From Nitrosopumilus sp. (GTDB lineage Archaea; Thermoproteota; Nitrososphaeria; Nitrososphaerales; Nitrosopumilaceae), in NCBI GenBank assembly GCA_965205215.1, contig OZ242041.1, positions 256,001 to 320,000 on the forward strand: a stretch of DNA of 64,000 nt. The letters run 5' to 3'. The position numbers were made by a program, and so were the translations under genes. Positions 43,535 through 61,506 of this stretch are shown in pieces (position 1 is the stretch's first letter; each line of letters begins with the position of its first letter). The notes under the pieces are model-generated. The model was not told the DNA's origin. It saw only the letters and a list, made by a program, of their open reading frames with translations, and made no database searches.

Positions 43535-43630
43535 CCCATAGCGGGGACGACAGCGGCGCGGTAACCGTTCAATCCTTCTCACCTCCCCCCCCCCCCCATG
43601 ACACGGGGCAGGAATTCGGGCAGTCCGGGC

Positions 43631-45454
43631 CTAATAGTAGTGATGCATCTGGCGCTGCTCCAGGCCCTCCTGCTCCCAGTGGTTGTGGTTCCTGCCGGGA
43701 TCCTTGTGGGCGTGCACGGTGCCGTCTATATGGCAGTGCGTGTTGTCGATCAAATCCTTGACAAAGACGTCATCCACGTTCAGGACGGCGCATGCGGCCT
43801 CTACGGAGCTCTTGAGAACCTGGGCCTTTACGGCATACGGCTCTATGACGCTGTAGGGCAGGAGGGAGACGTCGCATATGCTCCGGGAAGCATGGTCGAT
43901 CCCGTACCAGCCCGAGGGCGGGTCGGAGACGGCGGCGGCGCCGTTGTCCCCGTCACCGGTCCCGCCGGCATTGTCACCGGCGCGGGTCGTCGCAGCACGC
44001 GATCCCCGGCGGTCTCCGTGCACCCTTGAGCGCAGGAGCGGCAGCGCGTCCAGCGTCTCAATCCCGGCGTTCTCGGCAAGGGTCATTGGAACCGACTCGA
44101 GCGCGTCTGCAAACCTTGCGGCCGCGACCTGCGCCTTCCCGGCCATCACACCCGACTCGTCCCTGACCCGCCGCGCGAGAATGGCCTCGCACGAGCCCGC
44201 CCCATACACCAGGTACGGGCATTCGACGAAACCCCTCAGCATGTGCAGCACGTTGAGCGCGGTGCGGTGAAACTCGTCTAGGTACCTCTTTGAGTTGGCC
44301 CGCAAGAGGAGCGTCACGGACTTTGCGTCGTCACGCCCGGACTCGACGAAGAGCATCCTGTCCCCGCCCACGCTCCTCTCGCATACCAGGTCCGCATGCC
44401 CCATCTTCGCTCCTGACATGTCGCGTATGTCCGTGCATGTGACGGCGCCCGTCGCCTTTTCAAGCCACCATATGTCGTTGTGCTTGACCCGCCTCACAGA
44501 GATTATGCCGCTCCTTGCAAGCAGCTCCTGGGCCTCGTCGTCAATCCCCTTGCGGGATATGACCACGTTGGCACCGCTGCCGATCACCCCGCTCACCGCG
44601 CCGCGCACGTCGTCGGACTCCTGCCGCAGGAACTCCTTCATCTGTCCGGGAGAGTCCATCGCAATCTCCGACTCTGTCTTGGTGCGGCTGCGCTCAAGCG
44701 GCTCGCTCACAAGCAGTATCCGGGCGTCGCGCACGGCGCGGGGCATGGCGGCGCTGTCCACGGGCTTGTCGATTACGGTCCCCATTACCAGTTCGGTCTG
44801 CGCCGCGCTGCCGGGCTTTTCCTCTATCTTGACATCATCAGTATGGGCGCGCCCGGAGGACACGTCAGACGTGCAGTATGCGGCGCGTACCAGCATGTCG
44901 ACGATGCCGCCGTTTCCGGCGCCATTGCCCCGGCCATCCCGGACGCGGCTCCCCTCGCAGAGCTCCCCGAGCGCTGTGCCCCTGATGCAGCAGCGCGCCA
45001 GATCACGCATGGTGCGGTGGTCCGAGGCCCTGCCCTCGAACTTTATGCGCCCCAGTTCCGCCAGCGCGGCCTCCAGTCCCGCCTCGTATCCTGCAATGAT
45101 ACTGGCAGTCGGGATGCGCAGGGCGCGCATCTCCCTGGCATTCCTGAGCAGGGCCCCGATCAGCACCGCAGCGGTCGTGGTTCCGTCGCCCACGTGGTTG
45201 TCCACTGTGTTTACCGCGTCGATGACGGCCTTGGCGGCCGGGTGGTCCACGTCAATCTTGCGCAGAAACGCGCCCCCGTGCACGGTCAGGGTATCCTCGC
45301 CGAGGATGTCAACGTACACCTTCATCATGCCGCGCGGCCCGAGCGCCGTTCTAACCGTCCGTGTTACGAGCTCGCCGGCAATCAGATTGTACATCTGCGA
45401 CTCCTGCACGCCGATGCGCGACAGGTCGGGGTTGAATATGTCGGGGTACTTCAT
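43631..45454 (-). CDS. Divergent group II chaperonin (thermosome-like) with His-rich C-terminal tail
   Basis: LGPRGMMK, HPAAK, GDGTTT and LEKATGA motifs; tail THCHIDGTVHAH...NHNH...MHHYY. Confidence 0.88.
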   Translation of the reverse strand: MKYPDIFNPDLSRIGVQESQMYNLIAGELVTRTVRTALGPRGMMKVYVDILGEDTLTVHGGAFLRKIDVDHPAAKAVIDAVNTVDNHVGDGTTTAAVLIGALLRNAREMRALRIPTASIIAGYEAGLEAALAELGRIKFEGRASDHRTMRDLARCCIRGTALGELCEGSRVRDGRGNGAGNGGIVDMLVRAAYCTSDVSSGRAHTDDVKIEEKPGSAAQTELVMGTVIDKPVDSAAMPRAVRDARILLVSEPLERSRTKTESEIAMDSPGQMKEFLRQESDDVRGAVSGVIGSGANVVISRKGIDDEAQELLARSGIISVRRVKHNDIWWLEKATGAVTCTDIRDMSGAKMGHADLVCERSVGGDRMLFVESGRDDAKSVTLLLRANSKRYLDEFHRTALNVLHMLRGFVECPYLVYGAGSCEAILARRVRDESGVMAGKAQVAAARFADALESVPMTLAENAGIETLDALPLLRSRVHGDRRGSRAATTRAGDNAGGTGDGDNGAAAVSDPPSGWYGIDHASRSICDVSLLPYSVIEPYAVKAQVLKSSVEAACAVLNVDDVFVKDLIDNTHCHIDGTVHAHKDPGRNHNHWEQEGLEQRQMHHYY

Positions 45455-45493
45455 TAGCGGTATTACGATAATGATGCGGACAGGTTAAAAACT

Positions 45494-47137
45494 TCAGGCT
45501 CCCTTGCTTGGCACGCCGCCGGGCACGTTGCCGACCCCCTTTGCGCCGCCGTCCTTGCCTCCGGCGCCCTCCCCGCCGTCGCCGCCCGAGTCCTGCGGCA
45601 CTCCCTCAAGCCCCGAGCTCATGAAGTCTTCCCTAAAGTGCCTTAGGTCCTCGCCTGCAATCACGTCCTCCTCGGGCGGTACATAGTCGCGCACGTCGTG
45701 CCTGGCCTTTCCCGGATACCGGTTCTGGGTCGCAAGGGCCACGGCGATGAACACCGCGAACGAGACGACCGGCGGGATCATGGTGTCCAGTCCCGCCCAC
45801 TCCTCGGGCATGGTAAAGAAGAACGACAGCCGCAGGAACGACGCTATCAGGAGGGACGCGACGGCAGCAGGCATGTTTGCCTTCTTCCAGAACAGCCCCA
45901 GGGTAAGCGGGGCAAAGGCCCCCGCGAACATGATGTCAAAGGCCAGCACCAGATAGACCCCGGGGTTGGGCACCAGGTATCCCAGCGTGGTTCCCGCCAC
46001 AATCATGGGGAATAGCGTGACCCTCGTCATCCACAGCAGGCTCTTGTCGCTTGTGCCGGGCTTTCCAAGCCACCTCCTGCGTATTATCCTGTTTACGAGG
46101 TTGCGCGACACGACGCTTGATATGGCCAGCAACCCACCGCTGGCAGTGGACATGGATGCGCCGATCACCCCCATGAGGATGGCCGCGCCCACCGCAAAGG
46201 GCATGTGCAAGGTGCTGAGCAGCGGGAGCGCGAACCCGGGATCCGTGTCACCCGGCAGGTAGTAGAGCGCCACGATCCCAAGCATGCTGGTGGGCACGAC
46301 GGTAAACAGGGTGAGGGCCCCGCCCATGTATGCGCCCCGTCGTGCAGTCCTCGGATCCTTTGAGGCAAACACGCGCTCCATAAAGTCCAGGGCGATGATG
46401 TCGCCCAGCCCCAGCGCCAGTATGGCGCCCCAGTTTATCAGGGCCCCGTTGCCGATGTCAAACAGCCCCGACAGGTCCAGGAACTCGGGCGGCGCGTTCG
46501 CGTATATGACAGCCCACGGGGCGTCTGCAAACCCCCCCGCAAAGTACAGGAATCCGACCCAGAACGCGGCGATTGCAAGATATACTTGGAACAGGTTGGT
46601 GTACGCGGACGCAAACAGGCCGCCTGCGCAGGTATACGCAACCACCACCAGGGCCGAGAATAGAATCCCCCAGAAAAAGTCAATCCCGAACACGATCTCC
46701 AGTATGAACCCGCTTGCGGCCAGGTTCCCCGCGACCAGGACGGTAAAGCTGATTATCATGAGTACGCCGGATATGCCCTCTGCCGCGTTGCCGTACCTCC
46801 TGTAGTAAAAGTCCGGCAGGGTTATCATCGACATCTTGTTGAGGGGCTTTGCGTAGAACGTGGCCGTGATCAGCAGGCACACGCCCAGCCCTATGGGCAC
46901 GACGGCCCCGGCCCAGAATCCAAACTCGAAGACCAGCGCCACGTTGCCAAGCGACGAGTTGCCGTCCACTGCCTGCGCGGCGAGCATCGTCCCGACCATG
47001 GCAAGCGGCAGGCTCTTGCCCGCGACAATCAGCCGCTTGCCGCTCTGCTTTATGAGCCGGCCCGACAGGACGCCGACTACCAGTGTAAGCAGGATAAACA
47101 GTATGATCGCGGCCCCAAAGCCGTCTATCTCCGCCAA
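45494..47137 (-). CDS. Sodium:solute symporter (SSS/SLC5 family), substrate unknown
   Basis: About 13 TM helices; VAGKSLP, TLPDFYYRRYG, ASMSTASG, LGLFWKKAN. Confidence 0.9.
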   Translation of the reverse strand: MAEIDGFGAAIILFILLTLVVGVLSGRLIKQSGKRLIVAGKSLPLAMVGTMLAAQAVDGNSSLGNVALVFEFGFWAGAVVPIGLGVCLLITATFYAKPLNKMSMITLPDFYYRRYGNAAEGISGVLMIISFTVLVAGNLAASGFILEIVFGIDFFWGILFSALVVVAYTCAGGLFASAYTNLFQVYLAIAAFWVGFLYFAGGFADAPWAVIYANAPPEFLDLSGLFDIGNGALINWGAILALGLGDIIALDFMERVFASKDPRTARRGAYMGGALTLFTVVPTSMLGIVALYYLPGDTDPGFALPLLSTLHMPFAVGAAILMGVIGASMSTASGGLLAISSVVSRNLVNRIIRRRWLGKPGTSDKSLLWMTRVTLFPMIVAGTTLGYLVPNPGVYLVLAFDIMFAGAFAPLTLGLFWKKANMPAAVASLLIASFLRLSFFFTMPEEWAGLDTMIPPVVSFAVFIAVALATQNRYPGKARHDVRDYVPPEEDVIAGEDLRHFREDFMSSGLEGVPQDSGGDGGEGAGGKDGGAKGVGNVPGGVPSKGA

Positions 47138-47159
47138 CGCACCTGTTACGGATGCAGAC

Positions 47160-47280
47160 CTATTAAATATTGAAAATTTGATGTAAAGTACGTATTACGC
47201 ATAAAATATTATGTGTATAATACAAATTTATGCATAAAACGTAGTAAATACTAAAAAAAGATAGATTATATAAAGATACA
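47160..47280. promoter_or_regulatory. AT-rich regulatory region upstream of the SSS gene, with palindromes
   Basis: TATA-like at 47160-47167 (minus strand); cataa-aata-ttatg at 47200-47213; perfect palindrome tttatgcataaa at 47227-47238. Confidence 0.55.
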
Positions 47281-47998: not shown

Positions 47999-48523
47999 AT
48001 GCCCGGCAGTGGATATTCTACAATCGGCCTCAAGCCGGGCATACTGGCGCTCCTCACAAGCGTCACGGACACGTTTTATCCGGGAATGTTCCTGCCAAGC
48101 ACTCTGATAATTCTGATGAACGAGGTGAGGCTGGGACGGTATACGGTAAGGATGCACGGCCACAGGCTCGACCTCTCAGGCAAGTACAACACGCTGACCA
48201 TACGCAACGACATAAAGGAGTGGATTGACAGCCACCACAAGGAACACATGGAGGAGTACGCGTCAAAATACCGCATAAAGTGCTACTCGCACTTTGTCAG
48301 CTACTTTCTTGCAAACCTGTTCGAGTCAAAGTTCGAGTCGCAGAACGGGATCATACGGCTGCAGGAATCGGACTTTGAGTGGCTTCACTCAGAGTACGAG
48401 TCGCACCGTGCCGCGGCAGCAGGATCCGGGAACGGCAATATGACCTTTGACAGGTTTGCCGACGTGTACGTAAACAACATCCTGCAAAGGATGAGAACCG
48501 CAAAGGAGATCCTCTCTGCCTGA
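47999..48523 (+). CDS. Hypothetical protein with tandem ribbon-helix-helix-like modules
   Basis: Three beta-alpha-alpha patterns: YSTIGLKP, YNTLTIRNDIKEWI, IIRLQESDFEWL. Strong TATA upstream. Confidence 0.65.
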   Translation: MPGSGYSTIGLKPGILALLTSVTDTFYPGMFLPSTLIILMNEVRLGRYTVRMHGHRLDLSGKYNTLTIRNDIKEWIDSHHKEHMEEYASKYRIKCYSHFVSYFLANLFESKFESQNGIIRLQESDFEWLHSEYESHRAAAAGSGNGNMTFDRFADVYVNNILQRMRTAKEILSA

Positions 48524-48932: not shown

Positions 48933-50207
48933 TTATGGCGGCAGTCGCCGGTCATCTTGGCCCTCCCTCTTCCTCCCTTTTGCGGCCCTTTTTTGCGCCT
49001 TTGTGATTTTTTCCACAACCTTGTCCCGGTAGTACTCGGCGGTGCGGTTGCCGGGATCAAGCGAGAGCGCCTTTTCGTACGACAGGAGGGCCTCGGCGTA
49101 CCGCTCCAGCAGGTACAGCAGCTTTCCGCGATAACTGTGCGCGTACACGTACCCCGGATCCGCGCCGATGGCCAGATCGCAGTATTCAAGGGCCTCCGCG
49201 TATCGTTTGCGGTGCTCCAAGATCCAGACCATGCTGCACAGGGCCTTGGGATTGGATGGGTCGGCGCGTATCGCAGCGTCGCAAAAGAACGCGGCCGCGG
49301 CATGCTGCTTTAGCGAGTGTAGCGCGATCCCCTTGCTGTAAAGGGCCCTGACGTTCCTCGGATCGTACTCGAGAATCCTGTCAAGGCACTCGACTGCCTT
49401 GCGGTACAGGCCGGTCCGGTCATACAGGAAGCTCAGGTTGAGGTGGGCCTCGGTGCAGTGCGGGTCGATCCGTATGGCCTTCTCATAGAGCGGGACCACG
49501 TCCTTTGAGGGAAGCCCTGCATAGTCAAGCGTCCAGCCCTTTGCCACGAGCGCGTCCGTGTTCTCCGGGTTCAGGCGCAGCGCCCTTGTGTACATCTCCA
49601 CCGCCTTCTCGTGCCTTTTCTGCCGTGACAGTGCCTGGCCCTGCTCGTACAGGGCAGCAGACTGCATGGCCTCGGCCTTCCTTGCATCGTCCAGGGCCGA
49701 TATGGACTCGGCGTCCCTGTGCATCCGGCTCAGGACGCGGCTCCTGCAGTAGTGCGCCTGCACGTGGTTGCCGCCGCTTCTCGATATCGCTCCGTCAAGC
49801 ATCGCAATCGCCTCGTCGTGATCCCCGAGTCCGCTCCTGCAGAGGGCCGAGTATGCCACTGCGTCGTCATACGTGGCGTCTATTGCAAGGATCCTCTCAA
49901 AGTGTGCAAGGGCCTCCGCGTACTTGTGCTGCTTTTCGAGCGTGAGTCCCAGGCCCTGCAGGGCGTCTATGTTGGAGGGATCGGACTTGACTATCTCTGC
50001 ATAGCAGCGCTCGGAGTCGTCGTACCTTCCCGTCTGGTAGTGTATGCCAGCAATGTGCATCAGGGCGGTCCCGTTGTGCGGGTTTATGCTCAAGGCCTTT
50101 GCGAACCGGGAAGCCGCCTTTGAGAGCTGCCCGTACCGCTCGCACCGGAGTCCCTCGTTTATGTGGCGCCACTCGTTTACGCCGCGTCCCTTTCCTGCAA
50201 ATACCAC
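48933..50207 (-). CDS. Tetratricopeptide repeat protein
   Basis: About 11 34-aa repeats (A...Y..AL.LDP). Confidence 0.9.
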   Translation of the reverse strand: MVFAGKGRGVNEWRHINEGLRCERYGQLSKAASRFAKALSINPHNGTALMHIAGIHYQTGRYDDSERCYAEIVKSDPSNIDALQGLGLTLEKQHKYAEALAHFERILAIDATYDDAVAYSALCRSGLGDHDEAIAMLDGAISRSGGNHVQAHYCRSRVLSRMHRDAESISALDDARKAEAMQSAALYEQGQALSRQKRHEKAVEMYTRALRLNPENTDALVAKGWTLDYAGLPSKDVVPLYEKAIRIDPHCTEAHLNLSFLYDRTGLYRKAVECLDRILEYDPRNVRALYSKGIALHSLKQHAAAAFFCDAAIRADPSNPKALCSMVWILEHRKRYAEALEYCDLAIGADPGYVYAHSYRGKLLYLLERYAEALLSYEKALSLDPGNRTAEYYRDKVVEKITKAQKRAAKGRKREGQDDRRLPP

Positions 50208-50382: not shown

Positions 50383-51498
50383 ATGGGGATGGAATTTTAC
50401 GGTGACGATTACCGGGGGGCCGATGTCGCGCCGTTTGTTGGAATAAACACATTTCTGCACCTGCCCTGGATCAGAAGCCACGCCGAGCTGGTAGATGCAA
50501 ACCCCGACGTGGCGATAATAGGAGAACCGTTTGACTTTGGTACCACGATACGGCCGGGTGCAAGATACGGCCCGCGGGCCCTGCGCGCCGCGTCCACCAT
50601 ACCGTCCCCGCCGTACGAGCGGTTCAACATAGAGACCGGGGCCGACCCGTTTGGCACGTTCAGAACCGTGGACTACGGCGACGTGCAGGTCTCGCCGGGT
50701 GACGTGATAGAGTCACACAAGAGGATGACCGCAAAGGTCAAGGAGGTGCTCGAGCAAGACGGCATCCCGGTCATGCTCGGGGGGGACCACTCCATAACGT
50801 ATGCCAACGTAAGGGCGTTTGCAAAAAAGTACAAGCGGATAGGAATGATACACTTTGACACGCACGCGGACTGCGCGCCGCAGGGCCTGACGGGCTACAA
50901 GTACGACCACGGGGCCCACATACGCCGCATAATGGAGATCGGGTGCATGAAGGGGCGCAACTACTCGCTTGTGGGACCGCGCGGATACTGGCCGGGGCCT
51001 GACCTTTACAAGTGGATGTCCGACCAGGACTTTCAATGGTTTACGATGCTCGACGTGGAGGAGATGGGTATAGACTATATCGCAAAGGAGATTGCGGACC
51101 GCGCAAACGACGGGACGGACGCGGTATACCTGAGCTGGGACATAGACTCGTTTGACCCCGCATACGCCCCCGGCACCGGGGAGCCGGAGCCCAACGGACT
51201 AACGTCCAGGGAGGGCATACGCATGATCAGGCTGCTCTCGAAATCCTTTGACCCGGACCGCTTTGCGATGGATCTGGTGGAGGTCGCGCCGGCGTACGAC
51301 GTCAGCGATAACAGCTCGTACAACGGCGGGATTACCTCTGGCCTTGGCCAGCGGCTGATAGTGGAGCTGCTGGCGGGACTCTCGCTTACAAAGAGGGGGC
51401 TTGAGGGCGGCAGCCCCGTCAGGCCGAGGGACTATCGCGGTACGGGCAACACATACAACTTTGGAAACCCACGGGCGGAGATTCCTGATCGCGGTTGA
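50383..51498 (+). CDS. Ureohydrolase (agmatinase/arginase superfamily), substrate unknown
   Basis: RPGARYGP, GGDHS, HFDTHAD, SWDIDSFDP..APGTGEPE; all binuclear metal ligands present. Confidence 0.92.
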   Translation: MGMEFYGDDYRGADVAPFVGINTFLHLPWIRSHAELVDANPDVAIIGEPFDFGTTIRPGARYGPRALRAASTIPSPPYERFNIETGADPFGTFRTVDYGDVQVSPGDVIESHKRMTAKVKEVLEQDGIPVMLGGDHSITYANVRAFAKKYKRIGMIHFDTHADCAPQGLTGYKYDHGAHIRRIMEIGCMKGRNYSLVGPRGYWPGPDLYKWMSDQDFQWFTMLDVEEMGIDYIAKEIADRANDGTDAVYLSWDIDSFDPAYAPGTGEPEPNGLTSREGIRMIRLLSKSFDPDRFAMDLVEVAPAYDVSDNSSYNGGITSGLGQRLIVELLAGLSLTKRGLEGGSPVRPRDYRGTGNTYNFGNPRAEIPDRG

Positions 51499-52088
51499 CG
51501 GGTAATACGCGCAGCAGCGGCCGCCTGCAGTGCACCATACAGGTAACCGCGCGGGGGGCAGACAGGGACATGGGCCCGCTGACCAGGCGGTACGATATAA
51601 TGGACAGAAACGACGAGGAGATGCTTGCGGCGGCGGCCGACTCAATCCAGAACATGATCGCCGGCAACCGCAGGATAAACATCAACGACGTCATGCTGCT
51701 GTACGGTGCATGCGCGTACTCGTCTGCGGCAGCGGCAGGCCGGCAGGGCTCGTGCATGTCTGCAATCGAGGAGGGGCTGCCGGACATGCTGTCTGACCAC
51801 CAGGTGATGATCGGCGTGCCGGACATGATCAGGCGCCTTGAGATCAGCATCATGGACAGGACAGGCGGCGGCGGCGCGGCAGATGTAGTGATACAGGATC
51901 CAATCAGGCCCGCATCATACATGAAACGGGGATTGAGTCAGGGGCAGTCGTCATCACCATCGTCATCACCATCGTCATCACCATCGTCATCACCATCGTC
52001 ATCACCATCGTCATCACCATCATCGGCGGCGGCATCGCTTAGCAACAGCGATGGCGGCGGCAGGATAATCTCGGGTGAGATGCCATGA
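51495..52088 (+). CDS. Divergent urease gamma-subunit paralogue
   Basis: RININD...LSDHQVMIGVPDMIRRLEI...VVIQDPI aligns with UreA KLNHPE...[19 protein letters not shown]...VTVHDPI in this window. Start and stop overlap both neighbours. Confidence 0.7.
   Translation: MTGNTRSSGRLQCTIQVTARGADRDMGPLTRRYDIMDRNDEEMLAAAADSIQNMIAGNRRININDVMLLYGACAYSSAAAAGRQGSCMSAIEEGLPDMLSDHQVMIGVPDMIRRLEISIMDRTGGGGAADVVIQDPIRPASYMKRGLSQGQSSSPSSSPSSSPSSSPSSSPSSSPSSAAASLSNSDGGGRIISGEMP
51948..52019 (+). repeat. 12-bp tandem repeat x6 (tcgtcatcacca; SSSP)
   Basis: Seen directly in the sequence. Confidence 0.95.
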
Positions 52089-52945
52089 CCGTGCTGGACG
52101 GACTGCTTGCAGGCGCATACCACGCGCCGTATGCAGAGGCTCCCCTGCTTTTGCTGGGGGCCGGGCTGCTGATAGGGCTGTACCATGCATTGGAGCCGGA
52201 TCACGTAACCGCAATGCTGTCGTCTGTCAGACGGGGGCAGAGGGGGGAAGAGAAGCAGAGTAGGAGGAGGGCAGGCATATCGGGCTCCATATCGGGCTTG
52301 TTATGGGGGTTCGGGCACGCGTCTAGCATATTTCTAGTGGCGGTGTTAGTCATAATACTGTCCGTAAACATCCCACACGAACTGTTTGACATATTCGAGA
52401 TGGGGGTGGGCGCGATGCTGCTCCTGCTTGGCGTGTCGGCGATACGCGGAGGCGACGACGGCACAAAAAGGTGGGGGGTGCCATTCCTGTCACGACTCTG
52501 GACGCACTCGCACGTCCATACGCACGAGGACGGAACGACGCACTCACACCCGCACAGACACGACGACAAACACGGGGGTGGGGGTGATGACGGCAGCACG
52601 GGCCACTCGCACAGCCACGTCCCGTACGTCATAGGATGCGTGCACGGCCTGGCCGGAAGCGGGGGGTTGGTGATATTGGCCCTGTCGGCCGTACCGGACG
52701 CAATAGCATCGTCTGCGGCCGATGCCGGGGCGCTGCTGCCGCTGCCGCTATTGCTTGCGTCAGTGTTTGGCGCTGGATCAACGATCGGCATGGTGCTGGT
52801 GGCGGGTGCCCTGTCACTGTTGTTTGCGGCATGCGGCAGCACCAACACCGCAAGGAGGGCAATCCGGTACGCGTCAGGGGGCGCCGCAATACTGTTTGGC
52901 GCGTATATCATTGCGAGCGGCGCGGCCGCAGCGCTGGGGATATAG
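52085..52945 (+). CDS. ureH: UreH/NiCoT-like nickel transporter
   Basis: HALEPDH, WGFGH and HGLAGSGG motifs; His-rich loop HSHVHTHEDGTTHSHPH. Confidence 0.82.
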   Translation: MTVLDGLLAGAYHAPYAEAPLLLLGAGLLIGLYHALEPDHVTAMLSSVRRGQRGEEKQSRRRAGISGSISGLLWGFGHASSIFLVAVLVIILSVNIPHELFDIFEMGVGAMLLLLGVSAIRGGDDGTKRWGVPFLSRLWTHSHVHTHEDGTTHSHPHRHDDKHGGGGDDGSTGHSHSHVPYVIGCVHGLAGSGGLVILALSAVPDAIASSAADAGALLPLPLLLASVFGAGSTIGMVLVAGALSLLFAACGSTNTARRAIRYASGGAAILFGAYIIASGAAAALGI

Positions 52946-53552: not shown

Positions 53553-55772
53553 TCACGCCCCCGATTTTGCCCCGTCGTCCTTTCCGCTTTTGGCGTCGTC
53601 GCCACCGCTGTCGTCATCGTCGCCGCCACCGCCGGCTTCATCGGCAGGATCATCCTCGACGGCCTCCTGCGCCCCGGATTCCGTGACGACTGCCTTCCTG
53701 CCCCTGGCAACCTGTGCGATTCCATGCCTCGCTTCTATGATGGGTAGCCCAACTATAAAAAAGGTCGCGGCGCTCACCCATGTGACTGCTATGCCGACCC
53801 ACAGAGAGTAGAACCCGATGTCAAACACGTACCCGGAGAAGAACAGCGGCATGGGCCACGCTATGATCAGCACCAAGGTCATGATCCCGCCTCCCTTGAG
53901 GCTGAACTTGAACGCGCGGTTAAGCGTCCTTTCGTCCGCGTCGAGCGCCGCCTTCTCGGCCTGGCTGATGTCCACCAGCTTTATCCTCTCCCTCATTAAT
54001 GCCCAGTCGAACTTGGTCCTGCTTGCCAAGCTTCCCAGGCCCGCGATGGCGCCGCCCGTAAGTATGCCGGCTATGTTACCGAAGAGCATAGAGTAGTTGT
54101 GCCCCAGGCTGGCAAGCGACACCTCGCCCCCGAACTCCGGCAGCGACGCGGCCACGCCGACCCAAGTGCCCAGCGCCACGAAGAGCCCCGCAATCGCGCC
54201 TATCGTGGCGGCGTACTTGTTTGTGCGCTTCCACGTGATCGTCAGGGCTATCGGTATCACGGCAGAGCCGATCAGCACGCCCATCGCCAGGTATACGAAT
54301 CCCAGTGACAGTCCCATGCTCAGCAGTATCACCGCCAGGCCCCCCATGCCCAGGCCGAACCCGATTATGGTGGCGCGCGAGACCTTTAGCAGCTGTTTTC
54401 CCGACGCCGACGGGTTCTTGTACGTCCTATACACGTCGTACGTGATCAGCGACGAGACGGCGATCAGCTCGGCGGATCCCGCCGACGTCACGGCCATGAA
54501 CAGCATGGTCAGCACCATCACGGCGCCTACCTCGCCCATCAAAACCGATGCGGCGGCGGGCACCGTAAGCCCGAGCTGAACCTGCTCTGGCGTCAGGTCC
54601 ACGCCAAGCGCGACGGCCGTGAGGCCCATTGTAGTTGCAAGCGTAAACGGAATGGCAAACCAGCAGGCGCCACCGAGGAGGAACCCCTTTACCGTGGACT
54701 GCGGGCGCGCGGCAATCGCGCGCTGCCAGTACGCCTGGTCCACAAACACGGTGCCAAAGTTGCCCACGATGTTGATCACGCCGAATATCAGACCCCCGAG
54801 GGACGCCATGGTAAGGTAGGCGCCCGCCGCGTTGCCCTCCACCGGGCTTATGCGCGCGGCCTCGACGAGCTTGTCGTACATTCCCTCGATGCCGCCCGTA
54901 ATGGGGCTGATAAAGTAGACCGTGCTGACGAATATCAGTATCACGATGAATATGATTATGGTATGCATGTAGTCTGCAACGAACGTGGCCTTTAGCCCGC
55001 CGACCAGCGTGTATATCATCACGCCTATCGGGATCAGGAACGCGGCAAGCGAGATATCCATGCCGGTCAGCCCGTTGACGACTGCAGCGCCGCCGAGCAG
55101 CAGCATGGCTGTAACTATCATGTTGGTCATCAGGGCGAACACGAGAAAGACCCGGTGGGCGCCGCCGCCGTACCTGGCCCTTATGATCTCCAGGAACGTG
55201 TGGGCGTTGGGCGCCTTGCGCTTGAGCTCTATTGCCAGTATGCCGAAGAGAAGGACCTGTATGGATGCGCCTGCCGCATACCAGAACGGACCGCTTACCC
55301 CGTACTGGTAGGCAACCGTCGACGACTGCAGCAGCGTGGCGGCCCACGTCCAAGCAGATACAATGGCAGCCGCAGTAAGGCCTGTTTTGATCACTCTGCC
55401 AGCCGTGTTGAACCACTCTGAGGTCTGGGAGACGCCTAGGTATCGTTCCTCCACCTTTGTCTCGATCGTGATTACGATCGCGAACACGGCGCCGAGGCCC
55501 ACAACTATGAACCAGCCCCAGCTCTCGTCGAGCACGTCGCCTATCGTGAATCCTTCCGCGATGGCACCGGCACCAAACGCCGGGTTTGGGACGCAGGATA
55601 TAGCCAGTACGGCGACCAGCGCCACTGCCGCAGACGGCAAAAACGCCTGCCGGGACATGATCGCCTTTTTGTTAGCAGCCGCAGCAGACGCAATGGATTC
55701 AAGCGGCGCCACTACTGATGCCGTTATCGTAGAGAGGGTGGTAGTCGCAGGCTGTCCGCGCTCCATGCGCAT
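53553..55772 (-). CDS. dur3: DUR3-type active urea transporter (SSS family)
   Basis: FNTAGR, SAWTWAATLLQSS, GPFWYAAGA, GNFGTVFVDQAYWQRAIAA. Confidence 0.93.
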   Translation of the reverse strand: MRMERGQPATTTLSTITASVVAPLESIASAAAANKKAIMSRQAFLPSAAVALVAVLAISCVPNPAFGAGAIAEGFTIGDVLDESWGWFIVVGLGAVFAIVITIETKVEERYLGVSQTSEWFNTAGRVIKTGLTAAAIVSAWTWAATLLQSSTVAYQYGVSGPFWYAAGASIQVLLFGILAIELKRKAPNAHTFLEIIRARYGGGAHRVFLVFALMTNMIVTAMLLLGGAAVVNGLTGMDISLAAFLIPIGVMIYTLVGGLKATFVADYMHTIIIFIVILIFVSTVYFISPITGGIEGMYDKLVEAARISPVEGNAAGAYLTMASLGGLIFGVINIVGNFGTVFVDQAYWQRAIAARPQSTVKGFLLGGACWFAIPFTLATTMGLTAVALGVDLTPEQVQLGLTVPAAASVLMGEVGAVMVLTMLFMAVTSAGSAELIAVSSLITYDVYRTYKNPSASGKQLLKVSRATIIGFGLGMGGLAVILLSMGLSLGFVYLAMGVLIGSAVIPIALTITWKRTNKYAATIGAIAGLFVALGTWVGVAASLPEFGGEVSLASLGHNYSMLFGNIAGILTGGAIAGLGSLASRTKFDWALMRERIKLVDISQAEKAALDADERTLNRAFKFSLKGGGIMTLVLIIAWPMPLFFSGYVFDIGFYSLWVGIAVTWVSAATFFIVGLPIIEARHGIAQVARGRKAVVTESGAQEAVEDDPADEAGGGGDDDDSGGDDAKSGKDDGAKSGA

Positions 55773-55851: not shown

Positions 55852-57564
55852 CTAGTACAGGCTGTACAACCTTCCAAGGGACAGGCGCGTCGCCGGTTCG
55901 GCGGTGGCCGGCCTGCCGTCCACCACGACCTCGTAGGTCTCAGGATTGATGCGTATCTCAGGCGTCAGGTCGTTGTGCACCATGTCCTTTTTGCCTATGC
56001 CGCGGCAGTTCTCGACTGGCACCAGCCTCTTTGAGGTCCCAAGGCTGTCCGGAAGCCCGCGGGCAATGGCCAGCTTTGACGTGAACGTGACCGACGTCGA
56101 GTGCTTGGCCGAGCCGAGCGCCCCGAACATCGGGCGGTAGTACACAGGCTCAGTCGTCGGTATGCTCGCGTTGGGATCGCCCATCAGCGAGTACGCGACA
56201 AACCCGCCCTTTATGATCATCTTGGGCTTTATGCCAAAGAACTGCGGTGTCCACACCACGATGTCGGCAAGCTTGCCGGGCTCAAGCGAGCCGACGTGGG
56301 CCGATATCCCGTGCGTTATGGCCGGGTTTATGGTAATCTTGGCAAGGTACCTCTTTACGCGCACGTTGTCGTTGTCGCCGCGCTCGCTGGCAAGCCGCCC
56401 CGTGCTGCGCTTCATCTTGTCGGCGGTCTGCCAGTTCCTGGTGGTAACCTCCCCCACCCGTCCCATCGCCTGGCTGTCAGAGGACATCATGGATATGGCG
56501 CCCATGTCGTGCAGGACGTCCTCCGCCGCTATGGTCTCGCCGCGTATGCGCGACTCGGCAAACGAGAGGTCCTCCGGGACGGAGGGGTTCAGGTGGTGGC
56601 AGACCATCATCATGTCGAGGTGCTCCGCCAGCGTGTTCACCGTGAACGGGCGCGTAGGGTTGGTGGAGGACGGCAGTATGTTAGGCTCCCCGGCCACCCT
56701 CATTATGTCGGGCGCGTGCCCCCCGCCGGCCCCCTCCGTATGGTACGTGTGGATGGTCCGGCCCGCTATGGCCTGTATGGTATCGTCCACAAAGCCGCAC
56801 TCGTTGAGCGTGTCGGTGTGTATCGCAACCTGCGTGTCCGTCTCGTCTGCCACGCGCAGGGCCGAGTCTATGGTGGCGGGAGTCGTCCCCCAGTCCTCGT
56901 GCAGCTTTAGCCCGCAGGCGCCGGCTCCCACCTGCTCCAGAAGCGACTCGGGCCTGGAGTCGTTGCCCTTGCAGAGGAACCCAAAGTTGAGAGGGTATTC
57001 CTCGGCGGCCTCTATCATGCGGTGTATGTTCCACGAGCCCGGCGTGCAGGTCGTGGCCTTTGTGCCGTCGGCGGGGCCCGTGCCGCCGCCTATCATGGTG
57101 GTGGTGCCGTTGCATATGGCGTCCACCGCCTGCTGCGGCGAGATGAAGTGGATGTGAGTGTCTATGGTGCCCGGCGTGCATATCGTGTGCTCGCCGGCGA
57201 TCACCTCCGTGTTCGAGGACACGGTCATCTCGATGCCGTCCATGATGTGGGGGTTTCCGGCGTTCCCGACGCCCGCGATTAGCCCGTCCTTTATCCCGAT
57301 GTCGGCCTTTACGATGCCAAGCACCGGGTCCATGACGATCGCGTTTGTAATCAGCAGGTCAAGCGAGTCCTCCCGCAGGACGCCGCTGGCCTGGCCCATT
57401 CCGTCGCGCGCGCTCTTCCCGCCGCCAAAGACGATCTCGTCGCCGTGCACGAGCAGGTCGCGCTCGATCTCTATTATCAGGTCCGTGTCGGCAAGCCGGA
57501 CCCTGTCGCCGGCGGTGGGCCCGAACAGCTCGGCGTACCGGCGCCGCGGAATCTCAAGCGTCAC
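55852..57564 (-). CDS. ureC: Urease alpha subunit
   Basis: [41 protein letters not shown]. Confidence 0.98.
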
Positions 57565-58025
57565 TGCGACCTGTACCCCCTCTCCGCGGCAAGGCGCAGG
57601 GCCCCGTCCCTCTTCTGGTCGAGCGGCCCGTTCACCAGCCCGCCAAAGCCGTACACCGTCCTCTCCCCGCCGTACGCGACAAGGCTGACTGTGCGCGAGT
57701 CGCCCGGCTCGAACCGGACGGACGTCCCGGCGGGAATGTTCAGGTGGAACCCGTACGCCCTTTGCCGGTCAAAGGACAGGGCCCTGTTTGCCTCAAAAAA
57801 GTGGGCGTGCGATCCGACCTGCACGGGGCGGTCCCCCGTGTTCGTGACCTGCACCGACACGGTGTCCCTGTCCCGGTTGAGTACGATGTCGCCACCGGCT
57901 ATGATGTACTCGCCGGGTATTTCGCGCGCGATCACTGCCCGGCCGCCGCCCCCGTGGTTTTCAATGCGATCCTGGTGGTCGTCGTCGTAATTATCATTAT
58001 TAACATCACCTGCCACCATTACCAC
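57561..58025 (-). CDS. ureB: Urease beta subunit
   Basis: [24 protein letters not shown]; start uncertain. Confidence 0.96.
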
Positions 58026-58070
58026 CTGCCATCATCACAGTCCCCACCACGCAAGCACGACGACACATCC

Positions 58071-58373
58071 TCACTTTGCTATCGGGTCGTGTACGGTCAC
58101 GAGCTTTGTGCCGTCGTCAAACGTGGCCTCCACCTGTATCGAGTGTATCAGATCCGGAACCTGCGGCAGCACGTCGTCCTTGCAGAGAACGCTTCTGCCC
58201 GAGCTCATCAGCTCGGGCACGGTCCTGCCGTCACGCGCGCCCTCCAGTATGTGGTCCGTGATTACGGCGACAGCCTCCGGATGGTTGAGCTTGAGGCCGC
58301 GCTCCTTGCGGCGCATCGCAAGCTGGGCCGCAAGGAACACGTGCAGCTTGTCAATCTCCCGCGGCGTGAGCAT
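58071..58373 (-). CDS. ureA: Urease gamma subunit
   Basis: [34 protein letters not shown]. Confidence 0.97.
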
Positions 58374-58468
58374 CAATATTGAACCTACGTGCGTGACATA
58401 TTTAATAATTGAGGGGGCAGGGGGTGGGCGCAGGCAAAGTATAATTTGACACGCCGGCCAATCACGGC

Positions 58469-59014
58469 ATGCTGGATGTATACACCAAGATAGCGGGCAA
58501 CAAACTCAACGGCGACGAAAGGCGCGCAAGGGGCGGCGAGGAATTATTCGATACGGCCGTGATGCCGAGGGCCGACATGGCAAAGAGCAGGCAGCTTGTA
58601 AGGACAGAGTCGGGGGCCGAGGTAGGGATAAACCTGAGCCGGGGCACGACGCTGCGCCACGGGGACATCCTGCAAAGCGAGAACCAGAAGAGGGGGCCCC
58701 TAATGATCCAGCAGTCCCCCGAAAAGGTCGTCGTGGCAAGATTTCAGGCCCGGGATCCGGAGGACAACCATGGCATGCCATCTGTCAATGATTATTTCGA
58801 GTTATGCCTGGTCATGGGTCACGTAATAGGAAACAGGCACCGTCCCATCTCTGTCAACGGGGAGGAGAAGACCGTGTCGTTTCCGATACAGGACGATTCT
58901 GAACTAGAGACGTTTGAGAGGCTGCTTGGCCAGGCGGGGGGCGACGTCGAACTGAGGATTGCAAGGGAGATCTTTGTGCCGCATACGGGGGCCGACGTGC
59001 ATGGGCACCAGTGA
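58469..59014 (+). CDS. ureE: Urease accessory protein UreE
   Basis: [18 protein letters not shown]-terminal HGH. Confidence 0.9.
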
Positions 59015-59732
59015 CGCGGGAGCGGCGGGGGACGGCCCCGGCGCCTGCGCGCCGGACGATCTTGACGCCCTGCAGATATCAGACTCGCTGTTTCCCACCG
59101 GGATGTTTGCGTCATCAGGCGGACTGGAGCTGATGTTTGCCAAGGGAATGGTAACTGGCGCGCGGGAGCTGTCTGCGCTGTGCAGGGACCTGATCACCCA
59201 CCAGGTCGGCGTTGCAGACTGCGTGGCCCTTGCAAACGCGTACGACGCGGCGTTCCGCAAAGACACGGATGCCATAGAGGAGGTGGATGCCGCATGCTGC
59301 TCTACGAAGACGGTGCGGGAGGCAAGGGACGCGTACGTGCGCTCCGGAGTGCAGCTGTGCAGGTGCGTTGCAGGGTTTTGCGGCGACGCGCGCCTGGCAA
59401 GATACATGGAGTGCATAGATGACGGGAGGGCCTCCGGGGTCTACCCGGTCGCACTGGGCGTGTGCTGCCGCGCGCTCGGGATCGGAAAAGAAAAGGCCGC
59501 GCTGATCATGCTGTATGGGTTTGTCTCAAACATGGCGGGCGCGGCGCTGCGGCTGGGAATGATACATCACTTTGAGGCGCAGGGGATAATTCACGAGCTA
59601 AAGCCCGTCATGCGGGAGGCCGCCGCGTCGTCGGTTGCAAAGGACGTGTCGGAGATGTGGCAGTTCTGCCCGCACGCCGAGGCGCTGCAGATGGCCCATG
59701 CGAGGACTGATGCAAAAATGTTCATTACGTGA
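59001..59732 (+). CDS. ureF: Urease accessory protein UreF
   Basis: QISDSLFPTGMFASSGGLE; C-terminal H......MFIT. Confidence 0.92.
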   Translation: MGTSDAGAAGDGPGACAPDDLDALQISDSLFPTGMFASSGGLELMFAKGMVTGARELSALCRDLITHQVGVADCVALANAYDAAFRKDTDAIEEVDAACCSTKTVREARDAYVRSGVQLCRCVAGFCGDARLARYMECIDDGRASGVYPVALGVCCRALGIGKEKAALIMLYGFVSNMAGAALRLGMIHHFEAQGIIHELKPVMREAAASSVAKDVSEMWQFCPHAEALQMAHARTDAKMFIT

Positions 59733-60424
59733 CGGGAGGACGGCGCGGTATGGCGGAGAGGATACCTAGGATCGGAATAGGCGGGCCCGTGGGCTCCGGA
59801 AAGAGCATGCTGATTGAGCGCGTGGTGCCCGTGCTGGCGGGCCGCGGATACAGCGTGAGCATAATATCAAACGACGTCATATCAAAGGAGGACGCGGACC
59901 GCATGAGATCCAACCTGGCCACGGAGCGCGGCCTGCTGCCGGAGAACTTGGTCGTGGGGCTGGCGACTGGCGGGTGCCCGCACACGGCCGTGAGGGAGGA
60001 TCCGTCAATGAACATATCGGTAATAGAGGACATTGAAAGGGAGCACCCCGAGCTGGACCTCATAATAATAGAGAGCGGCGGCGACAACATAACCACCACG
60101 TTCAGCCCGCTGCTTGCAGACTACTTCATCTACATCGTAGACGTGGCCGGCGGCGACAAGTATCCAAGGAAGGGCGGGCTTGGAATAACGAGCTGCGACC
60201 TGCTTGTGATAAACAAGACGGACCTGGCGCCCATGGTGGGCGCGGACCTGGAGGTGATGAGAACAGACGCCCTGAGAATCAGGGGCGCGGAAAAGCCGTT
60301 TGTCTTTGTCAACTGCATGGCCGACCGGGGCATACCGGAAGTGGCAGACCTGATAGTAAGAAACCTGCTATTCGGGGAGCCCCCGAAGAGCCGCGCCGCA
60401 AAGGTGGGGGAAGTGCAGCAGTGA
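59729..60424 (+). CDS. ureG: Urease accessory GTPase UreG
   Basis: GPVGSGKS, TGGCPH, ESGGDN, NKTD. Confidence 0.97.
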   Translation: MTGGRRGMAERIPRIGIGGPVGSGKSMLIERVVPVLAGRGYSVSIISNDVISKEDADRMRSNLATERGLLPENLVVGLATGGCPHTAVREDPSMNISVIEDIEREHPELDLIIIESGGDNITTTFSPLLADYFIYIVDVAGGDKYPRKGGLGITSCDLLVINKTDLAPMVGADLEVMRTDALRIRGAEKPFVFVNCMADRGIPEVADLIVRNLLFGEPPKSRAAKVGEVQQ

Positions 60425-61506
60425 TGGGAACCGCGGCCGGCGCGGCAGCGGCGGCAGGAGGAGGAGTGGGAGCCGCGCCGCAAAGGTACGATGAGGAGGC
60501 TGCCGCGGACGTCATACCGCCCCACAGGACGGGCATGGAGGGGCGCCTGCACCTGTCGCTACTATACGACGGCGCCAGGACGATAATCGCGGGCCAGCGC
60601 GCAGAGCCGCCCCTGGCAGTACAGAGGGCGCTCTACTGCGAGCAGTCCCTGCCAGGCATGGCGTACGTGTATGTCACGTCCACGTCCGGCGGCATACTCC
60701 AGGGCGACAGGCACGTCACGAGGTTTGACCTGGGCGGCGGGGCGAGGGCCCACATCACGACGCAGGGGGCCACCAGAATATACGGGACAAGAGACTCGGC
60801 GCGTACAGAAAAGAAGCCGGCGGCGCGGGCGTCACTCCGCATGTCGCTGGGCGAGAGCTCGTATCTGGAGTACATGCCCGACCAGATAATCCCGTACGCG
60901 GGATCCAGGTTCCGGCAGGATGCGGTCATGTCCGTACACGAGACTGCAACCCTGGTGTACGCGGAGACCGTATCGCCCGGGCGCGTCGGAATGGGCGAGT
61001 CGTTTGAGTACGAGTCGTGCAGCCTGAGGATGCGCGTCACGGACCAGAACGGGAGGTTCAGGTTTGTGGATGCGGCAAGGATGGAGCCGCGAGTTGCGTC
61101 CTTGCAGTCATCGCCATCGGCATCATCGCAAACGGCATATTCTTTATCACCATCCTCACAACCATCAGATTCAACACAAGCATCGTCTTTACAGCCACAA
61201 TCCGCAGATGAGCCAGAACTGGACATAAAGTCGTTTGGAATAATGGAAGAATATGATGTAGTATCCTCGTTGTATGTAATTACAGAAAAAAAGCATGTGG
61301 AAAGCCTGCAAAAAGGCATGGACGGCGCCATACTCCAGCACGGCGAGGTTGCAGGCGGCGCCACCGTAATGAGCGGCAACACTGGGGTGATGGCAAGGCT
61401 GCTCGGGCGCGACACCGAGTCCGTAGGATCCGCAGTAACGGAGGCCGCCGCTTACGCAAGAAAGGTTGTTCTGGGCGCCCCCTTTACCGGCATCAGAAAG
61501 AGCTGA
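60421..61506 (+). CDS. ureD: Urease accessory protein UreD
   Basis: SGGILQGD, TTQGATRIY, LEYMPDQIIP, PGR..MGESF. Confidence 0.93.
   Translation: MMGTAAGAAAAAGGGVGAAPQRYDEEAAADVIPPHRTGMEGRLHLSLLYDGARTIIAGQRAEPPLAVQRALYCEQSLPGMAYVYVTSTSGGILQGDRHVTRFDLGGGARAHITTQGATRIYGTRDSARTEKKPAARASLRMSLGESSYLEYMPDQIIPYAGSRFRQDAVMSVHETATLVYAETVSPGRVGMGESFEYESCSLRMRVTDQNGRFRFVDAARMEPRVASLQSSPSASSQTAYSLSPSSQPSDSTQASSLQPQSADEPELDIKSFGIMEEYDVVSSLYVITEKKHVESLQKGMDGAILQHGEVAGGATVMSGNTGVMARLLGRDTESVGSAVTEAAAYARKVVLGAPFTGIRKS

Follow-up and report, generated by a model that had tools for sequence, protein, structure and literature searches.

Group II chaperonins are usually treated as general, ATP-driven folding machines. 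The 64,000-nt stretch of Nitrosopumilus sp. DNA analysed here (contig OZ242041.1, positions 256,001 to 320,000, referred to below as the window) raises the question of why one such protein, P0001, is encoded next to a sodium:solute symporter, close to an arginase-family ureohydrolase and the urease genes, and why it ends in a histidine-rich tail. The source genome (2.10 Mb, one contig) holds three chaperonin genes, two of them canonical and the third encoding P0001. Taken together, the results below indicate that P0001 is probably a thermosome paralogue turned module-specific, metal-handling factor. The features of the gene are as follows.

43631..45454, minus strand: group II chaperonin (thermosome paralogue) P0001, 607 aa (open reading frame (ORF) and translation, Pfam PF00118, AlphaFold2 (AF2), Foldseek)
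43634..43756, minus strand: His-rich C-terminal tail, residues 567-607 (alignment of orthologues)
43706..43738, minus strand: tail core motif HCHIDGTVHAH (sequence)
44252..44254, minus strand: codon of N401, opposite the second catalytic Asp, D386 of the M. maripaludis chaperonin (Mm-cpn) (HMMER alignment)
45173..45190, minus strand: intact nucleotide-binding loop GDGTTT, residues 89-94 (alignment)
45278..45280, minus strand: codon of H59, opposite the first catalytic Asp, D60 of Mm-cpn (HMMER alignment)

P0001 covers the Pfam Cpn60_TCP1 domain (PF00118) at full length (372 bits, residues 30-565 against profile positions 1-487 of 490), and its closest solved relatives are archaeal group II chaperonins, Mm-cpn being recovered by HMMER at E 1.8e-87. 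The AF2 model, built on an alignment of 79 sequences, reached a mean predicted local distance difference test (pLDDT) value of 85.7 and matched Mm-cpn and Thermococcus KS-1 chains in Foldseek with TM-scores of 0.91-0.95, normalised to the target; the equatorial, intermediate and apical domains are present with the built-in lid segment, and the alignment shows a lid region of normal length. P0001 missed every NCBIfam thermosome cut-off among the models scored (NF041082, NF041083 and TIGR02339), with 410 vs 450 for alpha, 393 vs 400 for beta and 397 vs 671 for the subfamily, and its PF00118 score compares with 633 and 622 bits for the two canonical thermosome genes of the same genome, one of which ends in a Gly/Met-rich and the other in a Gly/Pro-rich tail. 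In a tree computed with the tail columns removed from the alignment, and leaving out the two fragments P0132 and L066, the 33 tail-bearing proteins formed a single clade (SH-aLRT 100) beside the canonical thaumarchaeal thermosomes (support 92); their bodies, drawn from two families, share 36-56% identity with P0001. By this placement, the gene is a thermosome (group II chaperonin) paralogue with a single origin within the ammonia-oxidising archaea. P0001 also carries two low-complexity inserts rich in Gly, Asp and Arg (residues ~166-181 and 481-515), modelled with low confidence, which are peculiar to its lineage and absent from Nitrosopumilus-type orthologues. Among the distant matches, P0124 and P0125 (~1050 aa) each consist of two entire chaperonin units of group II joined in tandem.

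The tail, DLIDNTHCHIDGTVHAHKDPGRNHNHWEQEGLEQRQMHHYY, consists of 41 residues with 8 His and 1 Cys in place of a Gly/Met tail, confirming the count made in a first-pass annotation of the window, and its histidines are arranged as three HxH pairs and one HH. Ten tail positions (H573, H575, G578, H581, H583, H590, G597, Q600, R601 and H604) are invariant in the 33 orthologues of the two families, and the pattern reads HxH-x5-HxH-x6-HxH ... QR..HH.Y. The Cys is not conserved, Thr occupying its position in the soil clade, whose tails read HTH.DGT.HSH and are closer still to the loop of a NicO-like transporter described below. A word-indexed search returned 2023 proteins at E<=1e-30; when the query and the best 120 of these 2023 were inspected, 7-10 His were counted within the final 45 residues of 120 of the 121 proteins, and the remaining one is a truncated 493-aa form. 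Among 1.84 billion representatives, only three 50%-identity clusters (P0122, P0123 and the fragment P0132) match P0001 up to its last residue, and all three end in the His tail, with ordinary thermosomes following next at 39-40% identity. On these alignments, the tail defines one clade of ammonia-oxidiser thermosome paralogues; its constancy, and the rarity of its strict motif in the genome (see below), go beyond what chance would give. We abandoned the idea that it moves between protein families as a mobile module, as all 50 shorter tail matches are fragments or remnants of the same chaperonin, and the tail profile found no match in the PDB at E up to 10. Some soil-clade orthologues (P0132; L061:8807-10654(+)) possess an extra, very His-rich insert of ~45 residues in the chaperonin body. 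The same genome contains, ~31.5 kb before the window, a strongly His-rich open frame of 584 aa with long HEHG/HGHD repeats (G000:C1:224304-224556, minus strand).

The residue pairs H59/D60 and N401/D386 were counted by hand in the HMMER alignment of P0001 to Mm-cpn, in which TNDG is replaced by TVHG at the first site and VDDA by ALNV at the second. We take D386 of Mm-cpn to be catalytic; PDB entries titled 'D386A ... pre-hydrolysis ATP-bound state' carry a mutation at this residue. The first-pass annotation had read by eye TVHGGAF for TNDGATI (the first Asp replaced by His), EFHRTALNV at the second site (Asp replaced by Asn) and an intact GDGTTT, and for P0001 the alignment bore out all three; in addition, the GGG motif of chaperonins is GAG. 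The replacement of both Asp residues also holds for 18 of 20 Nitrosopumilaceae orthologues, which have His and Asn at the two sites and constitute a nested clade (support 100), but it does not extend to the family of tail-bearing chaperonins: the remaining two (L045 and L047), with Asn or Ser at the first site and Asp at the second, group with the soil sequences, and 9 of the 13 soil-clade orthologues keep both Asp, the first being lost in 1 and the second in 3. As judged from these sequences, loss of the Asp pair is limited to the marine Nitrosopumilaceae branch and is not a trait of the whole family. Because the fate of the Asp pair differs by lineage, the tail is the constant and earlier feature, with the hydrolysis residues decaying later, and completely so in the marine branch. 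Since the marine proteins combine His/Asn sites with a retained P-loop, they probably still bind nucleotide yet hardly hydrolyse it. Compared with the canonical archaeal thermosomes (Mm-cpn, Thermococcus KS-1 and T. acidophilum), P0001 thus shares the Pfam family, the three-domain fold and the P-loop GDGTT, but differs in H59 and N401 for the catalytic pair, in GAG for GGG and in a His tail for Gly/Met; its family, unlike theirs, has a patchy distribution and is tied to one gene module.

The genes whose distributions were compared with that of the chaperonin lie in the same window:

50383..51498, plus strand: arginase-family ureohydrolase, ARGase (Pfam Arginase 274 bits)
55852..58376, minus strand: urease structural genes ureC (55852-57564), ureB (57561-58025) and ureA (58071-58376)
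58469..61506, plus strand: urease accessory genes ureE, ureF, ureG and ureD

The survey comprised 400 genomes of the order with completeness of at least 85%, together with the window's own genome; f1 denotes the window's family, Nitrosopumilaceae, and the counts for f14 include four genomes flagged unpublished (G222, G354, G358 and G360), on which no other result depends. The tail profile was found in 41/149 genomes of f1 and 86/149 of f14, and in none of the 102 genomes of the other 14 families. ureC was detected in 65/149 (f1), 128/149 (f14), 4/7 (f3) and 2/10 (f8), and an ARGase orthologue at E<=1e-100 in 41/149 (f1), 87/149 (f14) and 4/7 (f3). Tail gene and ARGase occurred together in 40 genomes of f1, with 1 carrying only the tail, 1 only ARGase and 107 neither; the corresponding numbers in f14 were 85, 1, 2 and 61. 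Four of the five mismatches are fragmented assemblies (210-520 contigs) and the fifth is G343. The per-genus tallies of tail and ARGase were identical in every f1 genus, ten of which are mixed; hence gain or loss has affected the two genes jointly on many occasions. Among genomes with listed coordinates of both genes on the same contig, the distance is at most 25 kb in 37/37 of f1 (median 7.1 kb) and at most 6.7 kb in 75/75 of f14 (median 1.3 kb). The first-pass annotation had linked the chaperonin to urea metabolism and proposed comparing its profile with ureC. That link stood, since all 41 tail-bearing f1 genomes have ureC and orthologues are not equally common in urease-negative f1 genomes (0/84 vs 41/65). 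Urease is not the best partner, however, and ARGase, nearly one-to-one with the chaperonin, matches its profile far better. The chaperonin is thus a fixed member of a module built around ARGase, which includes a sodium:solute symporter (SSS) and often a NicO-like transporter and which, within Nitrosopumilaceae, occurs only in urease-bearing genomes.

The complete genome G343 illustrates how the two genes part from urease. It contains ureC and a NicO-like gene, ARGase was not found in it, and its chaperonin is reduced to the last ~85 codons beside the NicO-like gene (L053, G343:C1, 9794-10052), the last 62 residues of this remnant being 94% identical to those of a congener. G343 records a single event that removed chaperonin and ARGase jointly and left urease in place. 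Several tail-only ORFs of 52-107 aa lie on long contigs in the protein database, which suggests that such decay of the chaperonin recurs.

These distributions bear directly on the proposal of the first-pass annotation that P0001 is a nickel metallo-chaperonin serving urease itself, either by storing or delivering Ni or by folding UreC. Besides the presence of ureC in every tail-bearing f1 genome, this proposal can draw on gene proximity, for the chaperonin gene is ~10 kb from ureABC in the window and abuts ureD or ureA in several other loci (L035, L047, L057-L060 and L064). It is opposed by the absence of the tail gene from 24 of the 65 ureC-positive genomes of f1 and 53 of the 128 of f14, in which urease must mature without it, and by the full ureEFGD set already present in the window. 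Likewise, at least seven complete f1 genomes (G033, G080, G126, G135, G162, G205 and G225) have ureC 0.2-1.3 Mb away from the chaperonin but ARGase within 25 kb of it, and G343 retained urease after losing the chaperonin. We consider a chaperonin devoted to urease unlikely.

The remaining genes of the module, as arranged in the window, are listed below.

45494..47137, minus strand: sodium:solute symporter SSS1, 39 nt upstream of the chaperonin on the same strand (Pfam SSF 84 bits)
47999..48523, plus strand: conserved protein of 174 aa without a family (no Pfam or NCBIfam match)
48933..50207, minus strand: TPR-repeat protein (Pfam TPR families)
51495..52088, plus strand: ORF whose start overlaps the ARGase stop, with a Ser/Pro repeat tail (Urease_gamma at E = 0.22 only)
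52085..52945, plus strand: NicO-like putative nickel/cobalt transporter with a His-rich loop (Atlas neighbours, motif)
52517..52549, plus strand: HTHEDGTTHSH in the His loop of the NicO-like protein (motif scan)
53553..55772, minus strand: second, longer sodium:solute symporter SSS2, downstream of ureC (Pfam SSF; TIGR00813 224 bits)

Nickel is suggested by the company the chaperonin keeps: urease, a nickel enzyme, is present in 41/41 carriers of f1, and the module contains a NicO-like gene sharing the core motif of the tail. A scan of the whole genome (12,795 six-frame ORFs of 80 aa or longer, 2.19 million residues) gave exactly two occurrences of the strict motif H.H.[DNE]G..H.H, namely HCHIDGTVHAH in the chaperonin tail and, 8.8 kb away, HTHEDGTTHSH in the NicO-like loop. 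The NicO-like product is a membrane protein whose nearest Atlas clusters are named nickel transporter or NicO (0.95-0.96), with E = 0.1 only against Pfam NicO; its H-x4-DH motif and His loop are conserved in 20 orthologues, and of 22 orthologues 12 contain H.H.[DNE]G..H.H and all contain alternating HxH runs. On these features, we regard it as a putative NicO-like nickel/cobalt transporter. The motif common to tail and transporter strengthens the case for nickel, which the chaperonin tail probably binds.

ARGase is strongly conserved (79% mean column identity over 31 orthologues), and the six residues that we take to be the arginase-family metal ligands (H136, D159, H161, D163, D253 and D255) do not vary among the 31. 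It falls below the NCBIfam agmatinase cut-offs and is not an agmatinase equivalog; its solved relatives are guanidinobutyrase (the best, 180 bits), the guanidinases 9fek and 7esr/7oi1 (164-166 bits), guanidinopropionase and metformin hydrolase, the last of these nickel-dependent. Assignment as a guanidinase was not adopted: in a hand-counted alignment, the guanidinase-type Trp of 9fek 'GTGW' is Glu in ARGase. A second arginase-family gene is located elsewhere in the same genome. A complex prediction of ARGase with a 51-residue tail and two Mn scored 0.00, which bears neither way on binding. Guanidinase is nickel-dependent and was reported to be far more active when co-expressed with nickel-loading chaperones, and comammox Nitrospira is described in the same article as having no recognisable nickel loader for it (PMC11410670). 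P0001 is a candidate for a role analogous to that of this missing nitrifier loader.

From these observations we propose a dedicated chaperonin cage with a His-lined, Ni-binding chamber that serves the ureohydrolase/urease module, the marine branch having become a holding and metal-delivery scaffold; we judge the arguments for and against this reading to be about evenly balanced. In thermosome structures, the C-termini extend from the ring equator into the floor of the cavity. A cage of P0001 would hence gather sixteen or so tails into a His-lined, Ni2+-binding floor, and ARGase, possibly along with subunits of urease, would be kept inside while it folds, assembles or receives its metal. The adjacent symporter SSS1 would import a guanidino compound, ARGase would cleave it to release urea, and urease would produce ammonia from the urea for energy. 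In the marine branch, the cage would act as a holding and metal-delivery scaffold and not as a cycling foldase. If this is true, P0001 would be an unusual example of a thermosome that has come to serve the maturation of one enzyme: its tail would be fixed for metal binding, its ATPase site has decayed and its gene accompanies a single enzyme gene one-to-one. Roughly one in four sampled marine ammonia-oxidising archaea, and more than half of the sampled soil ones, possess the conserved module, which would feed urease, and its combination of symporter, ureohydrolase, chaperonin and often nickel transporter bears on which organic nitrogen compounds fuel nitrification.

Several observations weigh against this reading. 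Most soil orthologues keep both Asp, which places a dead ATPase outside the core mechanism of the family. The ARGase of four of the seven f3 genomes (72-74% identity) is accompanied by urease and by no tail chaperonin, so a genome may have the enzyme and lack the chaperonin. A single island that moves as a whole could explain the co-occurrence and linkage, and because the genomes are kin, Fisher values for co-occurrence are overstated and were given no weight. The tail is modelled at pLDDT <50, with short strands at 572-574 and 580-582, a low-confidence prediction with no solved relative. The metal ligands of ARGase do not tell Ni from Mn, and its best solved match, guanidinobutyrase, is a manganese enzyme. 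Finally, the NicO-like gene, which had been expected to share the distribution of the chaperonin, proved looser in spread: it is found in 63/149 genomes of f1 (18 of them ureC-negative), 30/149 of f14 and 7/7 of f3, and is absent from 6 of the 41 f1 carriers, so the nickel link through this gene is not module-specific.

A sharper version of the proposal would make the marine protein an ATPase-dead, client-dedicated cage, namely a nickel insertase and assembly chamber for a nickel-dependent ARGase. It would then be the loader that other nitrifiers are reported to lack for such enzymes, and would mark an unrecognised route of ammonia-oxidising archaea from a guanidino compound through urea to ammonia with its own symporter. 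We consider this version possible but rather unlikely.

The metal itself is where another explanation departs from ours. The tail might bind Zn, Co, Cu or Mn, or might be a docking peptide, in which case ARGase would be an ordinary Mn enzyme and P0001 a client-specific foldase without a nickel role. Sequence does not tell Ni from other His-loving metals, and both the match of ARGase to guanidinobutyrase and the loose tie of the NicO-like gene to the module are in keeping with this explanation. The same motif in a NicO-type transporter loop and the strict co-occurrence in f1 with the nickel enzyme urease speak for nickel instead, and Mn2+ is a poor match for an all-His site. We find a tail without a role in nickel handling decidedly improbable.

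Alternatively, the protein could be a nickel store or buffer, a many-tailed His cage comparable to Hpn or the HspA tail with no specific client. An invariant tail on a marine protein that has lost its catalytic Asp residues, the extra His-rich inserts of some orthologues and the motif in common with the NicO-like loop would all fit such a buffer. It should, however, follow all nickel users; instead, the gene is nearly one-to-one with ARGase and missing from many urease carriers, the whole chaperonin body including the lid region is under constraint, and most soil orthologues keep their ATPase residues. We regard a clientless store as very unlikely. Least probable is a general subunit for heat or pressure stress that joins ordinary thermosome rings, in line with the possible high-pressure adaptation that Zhong et al. 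2020 read into the extra thermosome of a hadal genome (PMC7265257): P0001 is a close paralogue of the canonical subunits and mixed rings are possible, but relatives in sponge and coral metagenomes and the gene in soil ammonia-oxidising archaea show the chaperonin to be independent of depth, its distribution tracks that of one enzyme gene and not habitat or clade, and the hydrolysis residues are lost in the marine branch.

A dedicated cage for the ureohydrolase module can be set beside several known systems. HspA of Helicobacter pylori, a urease-dependent organism, is a GroES with a His/Cys-rich nickel-binding tail. Like P0001 it is a protein of a chaperonin system with a C-terminal extension; unlike P0001 it serves as the lid, or co-chaperonin, in a system of group I, and its tail has no sequence relation to that of P0001, whose profile found no PDB match. 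The tail of mycobacterial GroEL1 is a plain His run and not a motif of fixed spacing, and we know of no dedicated enzyme module described for it. This duplicated chaperonin with a His-rich C-terminus has been proposed to bind metals or to aid metalloprotein folding (PMC5904260). GroEL1, like P0001, has a His-rich tail in place of a Gly/Met tail, but it belongs to group I and P0001 to group II. The nickel loaders of the Synechocystis guanidine hydrolase are presumably HypA/HypB-type proteins and not chaperonins; as accessory factors that bring Ni into an arginase-family enzyme they have a role analogous to the one proposed here, and no homology to P0001 is claimed. That this hydrolase needs nickel-loading chaperones has been reported (PMC11410670).

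Two earlier studies noted chaperonin genes near urease in this group of archaea. In the hadal thaumarchaeal metagenome-assembled genome MTA1, Zhong et al. 2020 described a further thermosome, separate in phylogeny from the others, that lies next to a symporter and urease, and they suggested a role in adaptation to pressure (PMC7265257). This extra thermosome most likely belongs to the same family as P0001; the main-text passages on it contain no analysis of a tail, of the active site or of a ureohydrolase. Abby et al. 2018 reported an Hsp60 homologue in the urease loci of Nitrosocaldus and Nitrososphaerales and stated that it is absent from Nitrosopumilales (PMC5797428). Their homologue, like P0001, is a chaperonin-family gene linked to urease in ammonia-oxidising archaea, but it is stated to be missing from Nitrosopumilales, where the tail family occurs. 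Our loci contain a second chaperonin, here called type A, located between ureC and ureE in two f8 and two f14 genomes:

L068:6629-8266, minus strand: type A chaperonin
L069:6968-8584, minus strand: type A chaperonin
L072:6796-8388, minus strand: type A chaperonin
L073:11673-13238, plus strand: type A chaperonin

Type A proteins (~516 aa) have no His tail, keep both Asp and GGG, form a distant branch in the tree and score on both the thermosome (313 bits) and the GroEL (169 bits) models, like bacterial 'group III' chaperonins. They appear to be the urease-locus Hsp60 homologue of Abby et al. That P0001 itself is this homologue was ruled out by synteny, by its 22-24% identity to the three type A copies scored (L068, L069 and L073) and by its separate clade in the tree. 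A search of the main texts of published articles turned up no account of this tail, of the loss of the Asp residues or of a link to the ureohydrolase; new here are the tail-defined clade, the lineage-limited Asp loss, the tie to the ureohydrolase and the motif in common with the NicO-like transporter.

The neighbourhood of the chaperonin was compared over a sample of 39 loci of 20 kb, in which SSS1, the 174-aa protein, the TPR protein, ARGase, the two ORFs downstream of ARGase and the urease genes recur. In 10 of 19 intact Nitrosopumilaceae loci, the gene directly upstream of the chaperonin, and in the same orientation, is SSS1, which in 13/13 soil-clade loci lies inside the 20-kb locus; the TPR protein is syntenic in Nitrosopumilaceae loci. 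The 174-aa protein, present in most loci at 44-60% identity, contains 8 His and is specific to Nitrososphaerota; weak ribbon-helix-helix leads (Atlas 0.83-0.86) were its only matches, and it is possibly the regulator of the module. Close to its end, the product of 51495..52088 carries a (SSSP)n-like Ser/Pro repeat, and an ORF at the same position in L071 matches UreA with 39% identity. The window also contains a gene for a small Cys-rich membrane protein.

Contigs from two sponge metatranscriptome libraries (X19 and X20) match pieces of the chaperonin (for example 44363-44710), SSS1, ARGase, SSS2 and ureC; contigs from RNA libraries are no sign of transcription, and the parts left uncovered carry no meaning. 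DNA nearly identical to positions 43500-47200 of the window is found in sponge and coral metagenome runs, and the organism is therefore probably a host-associated member of Nitrosopumilaceae.

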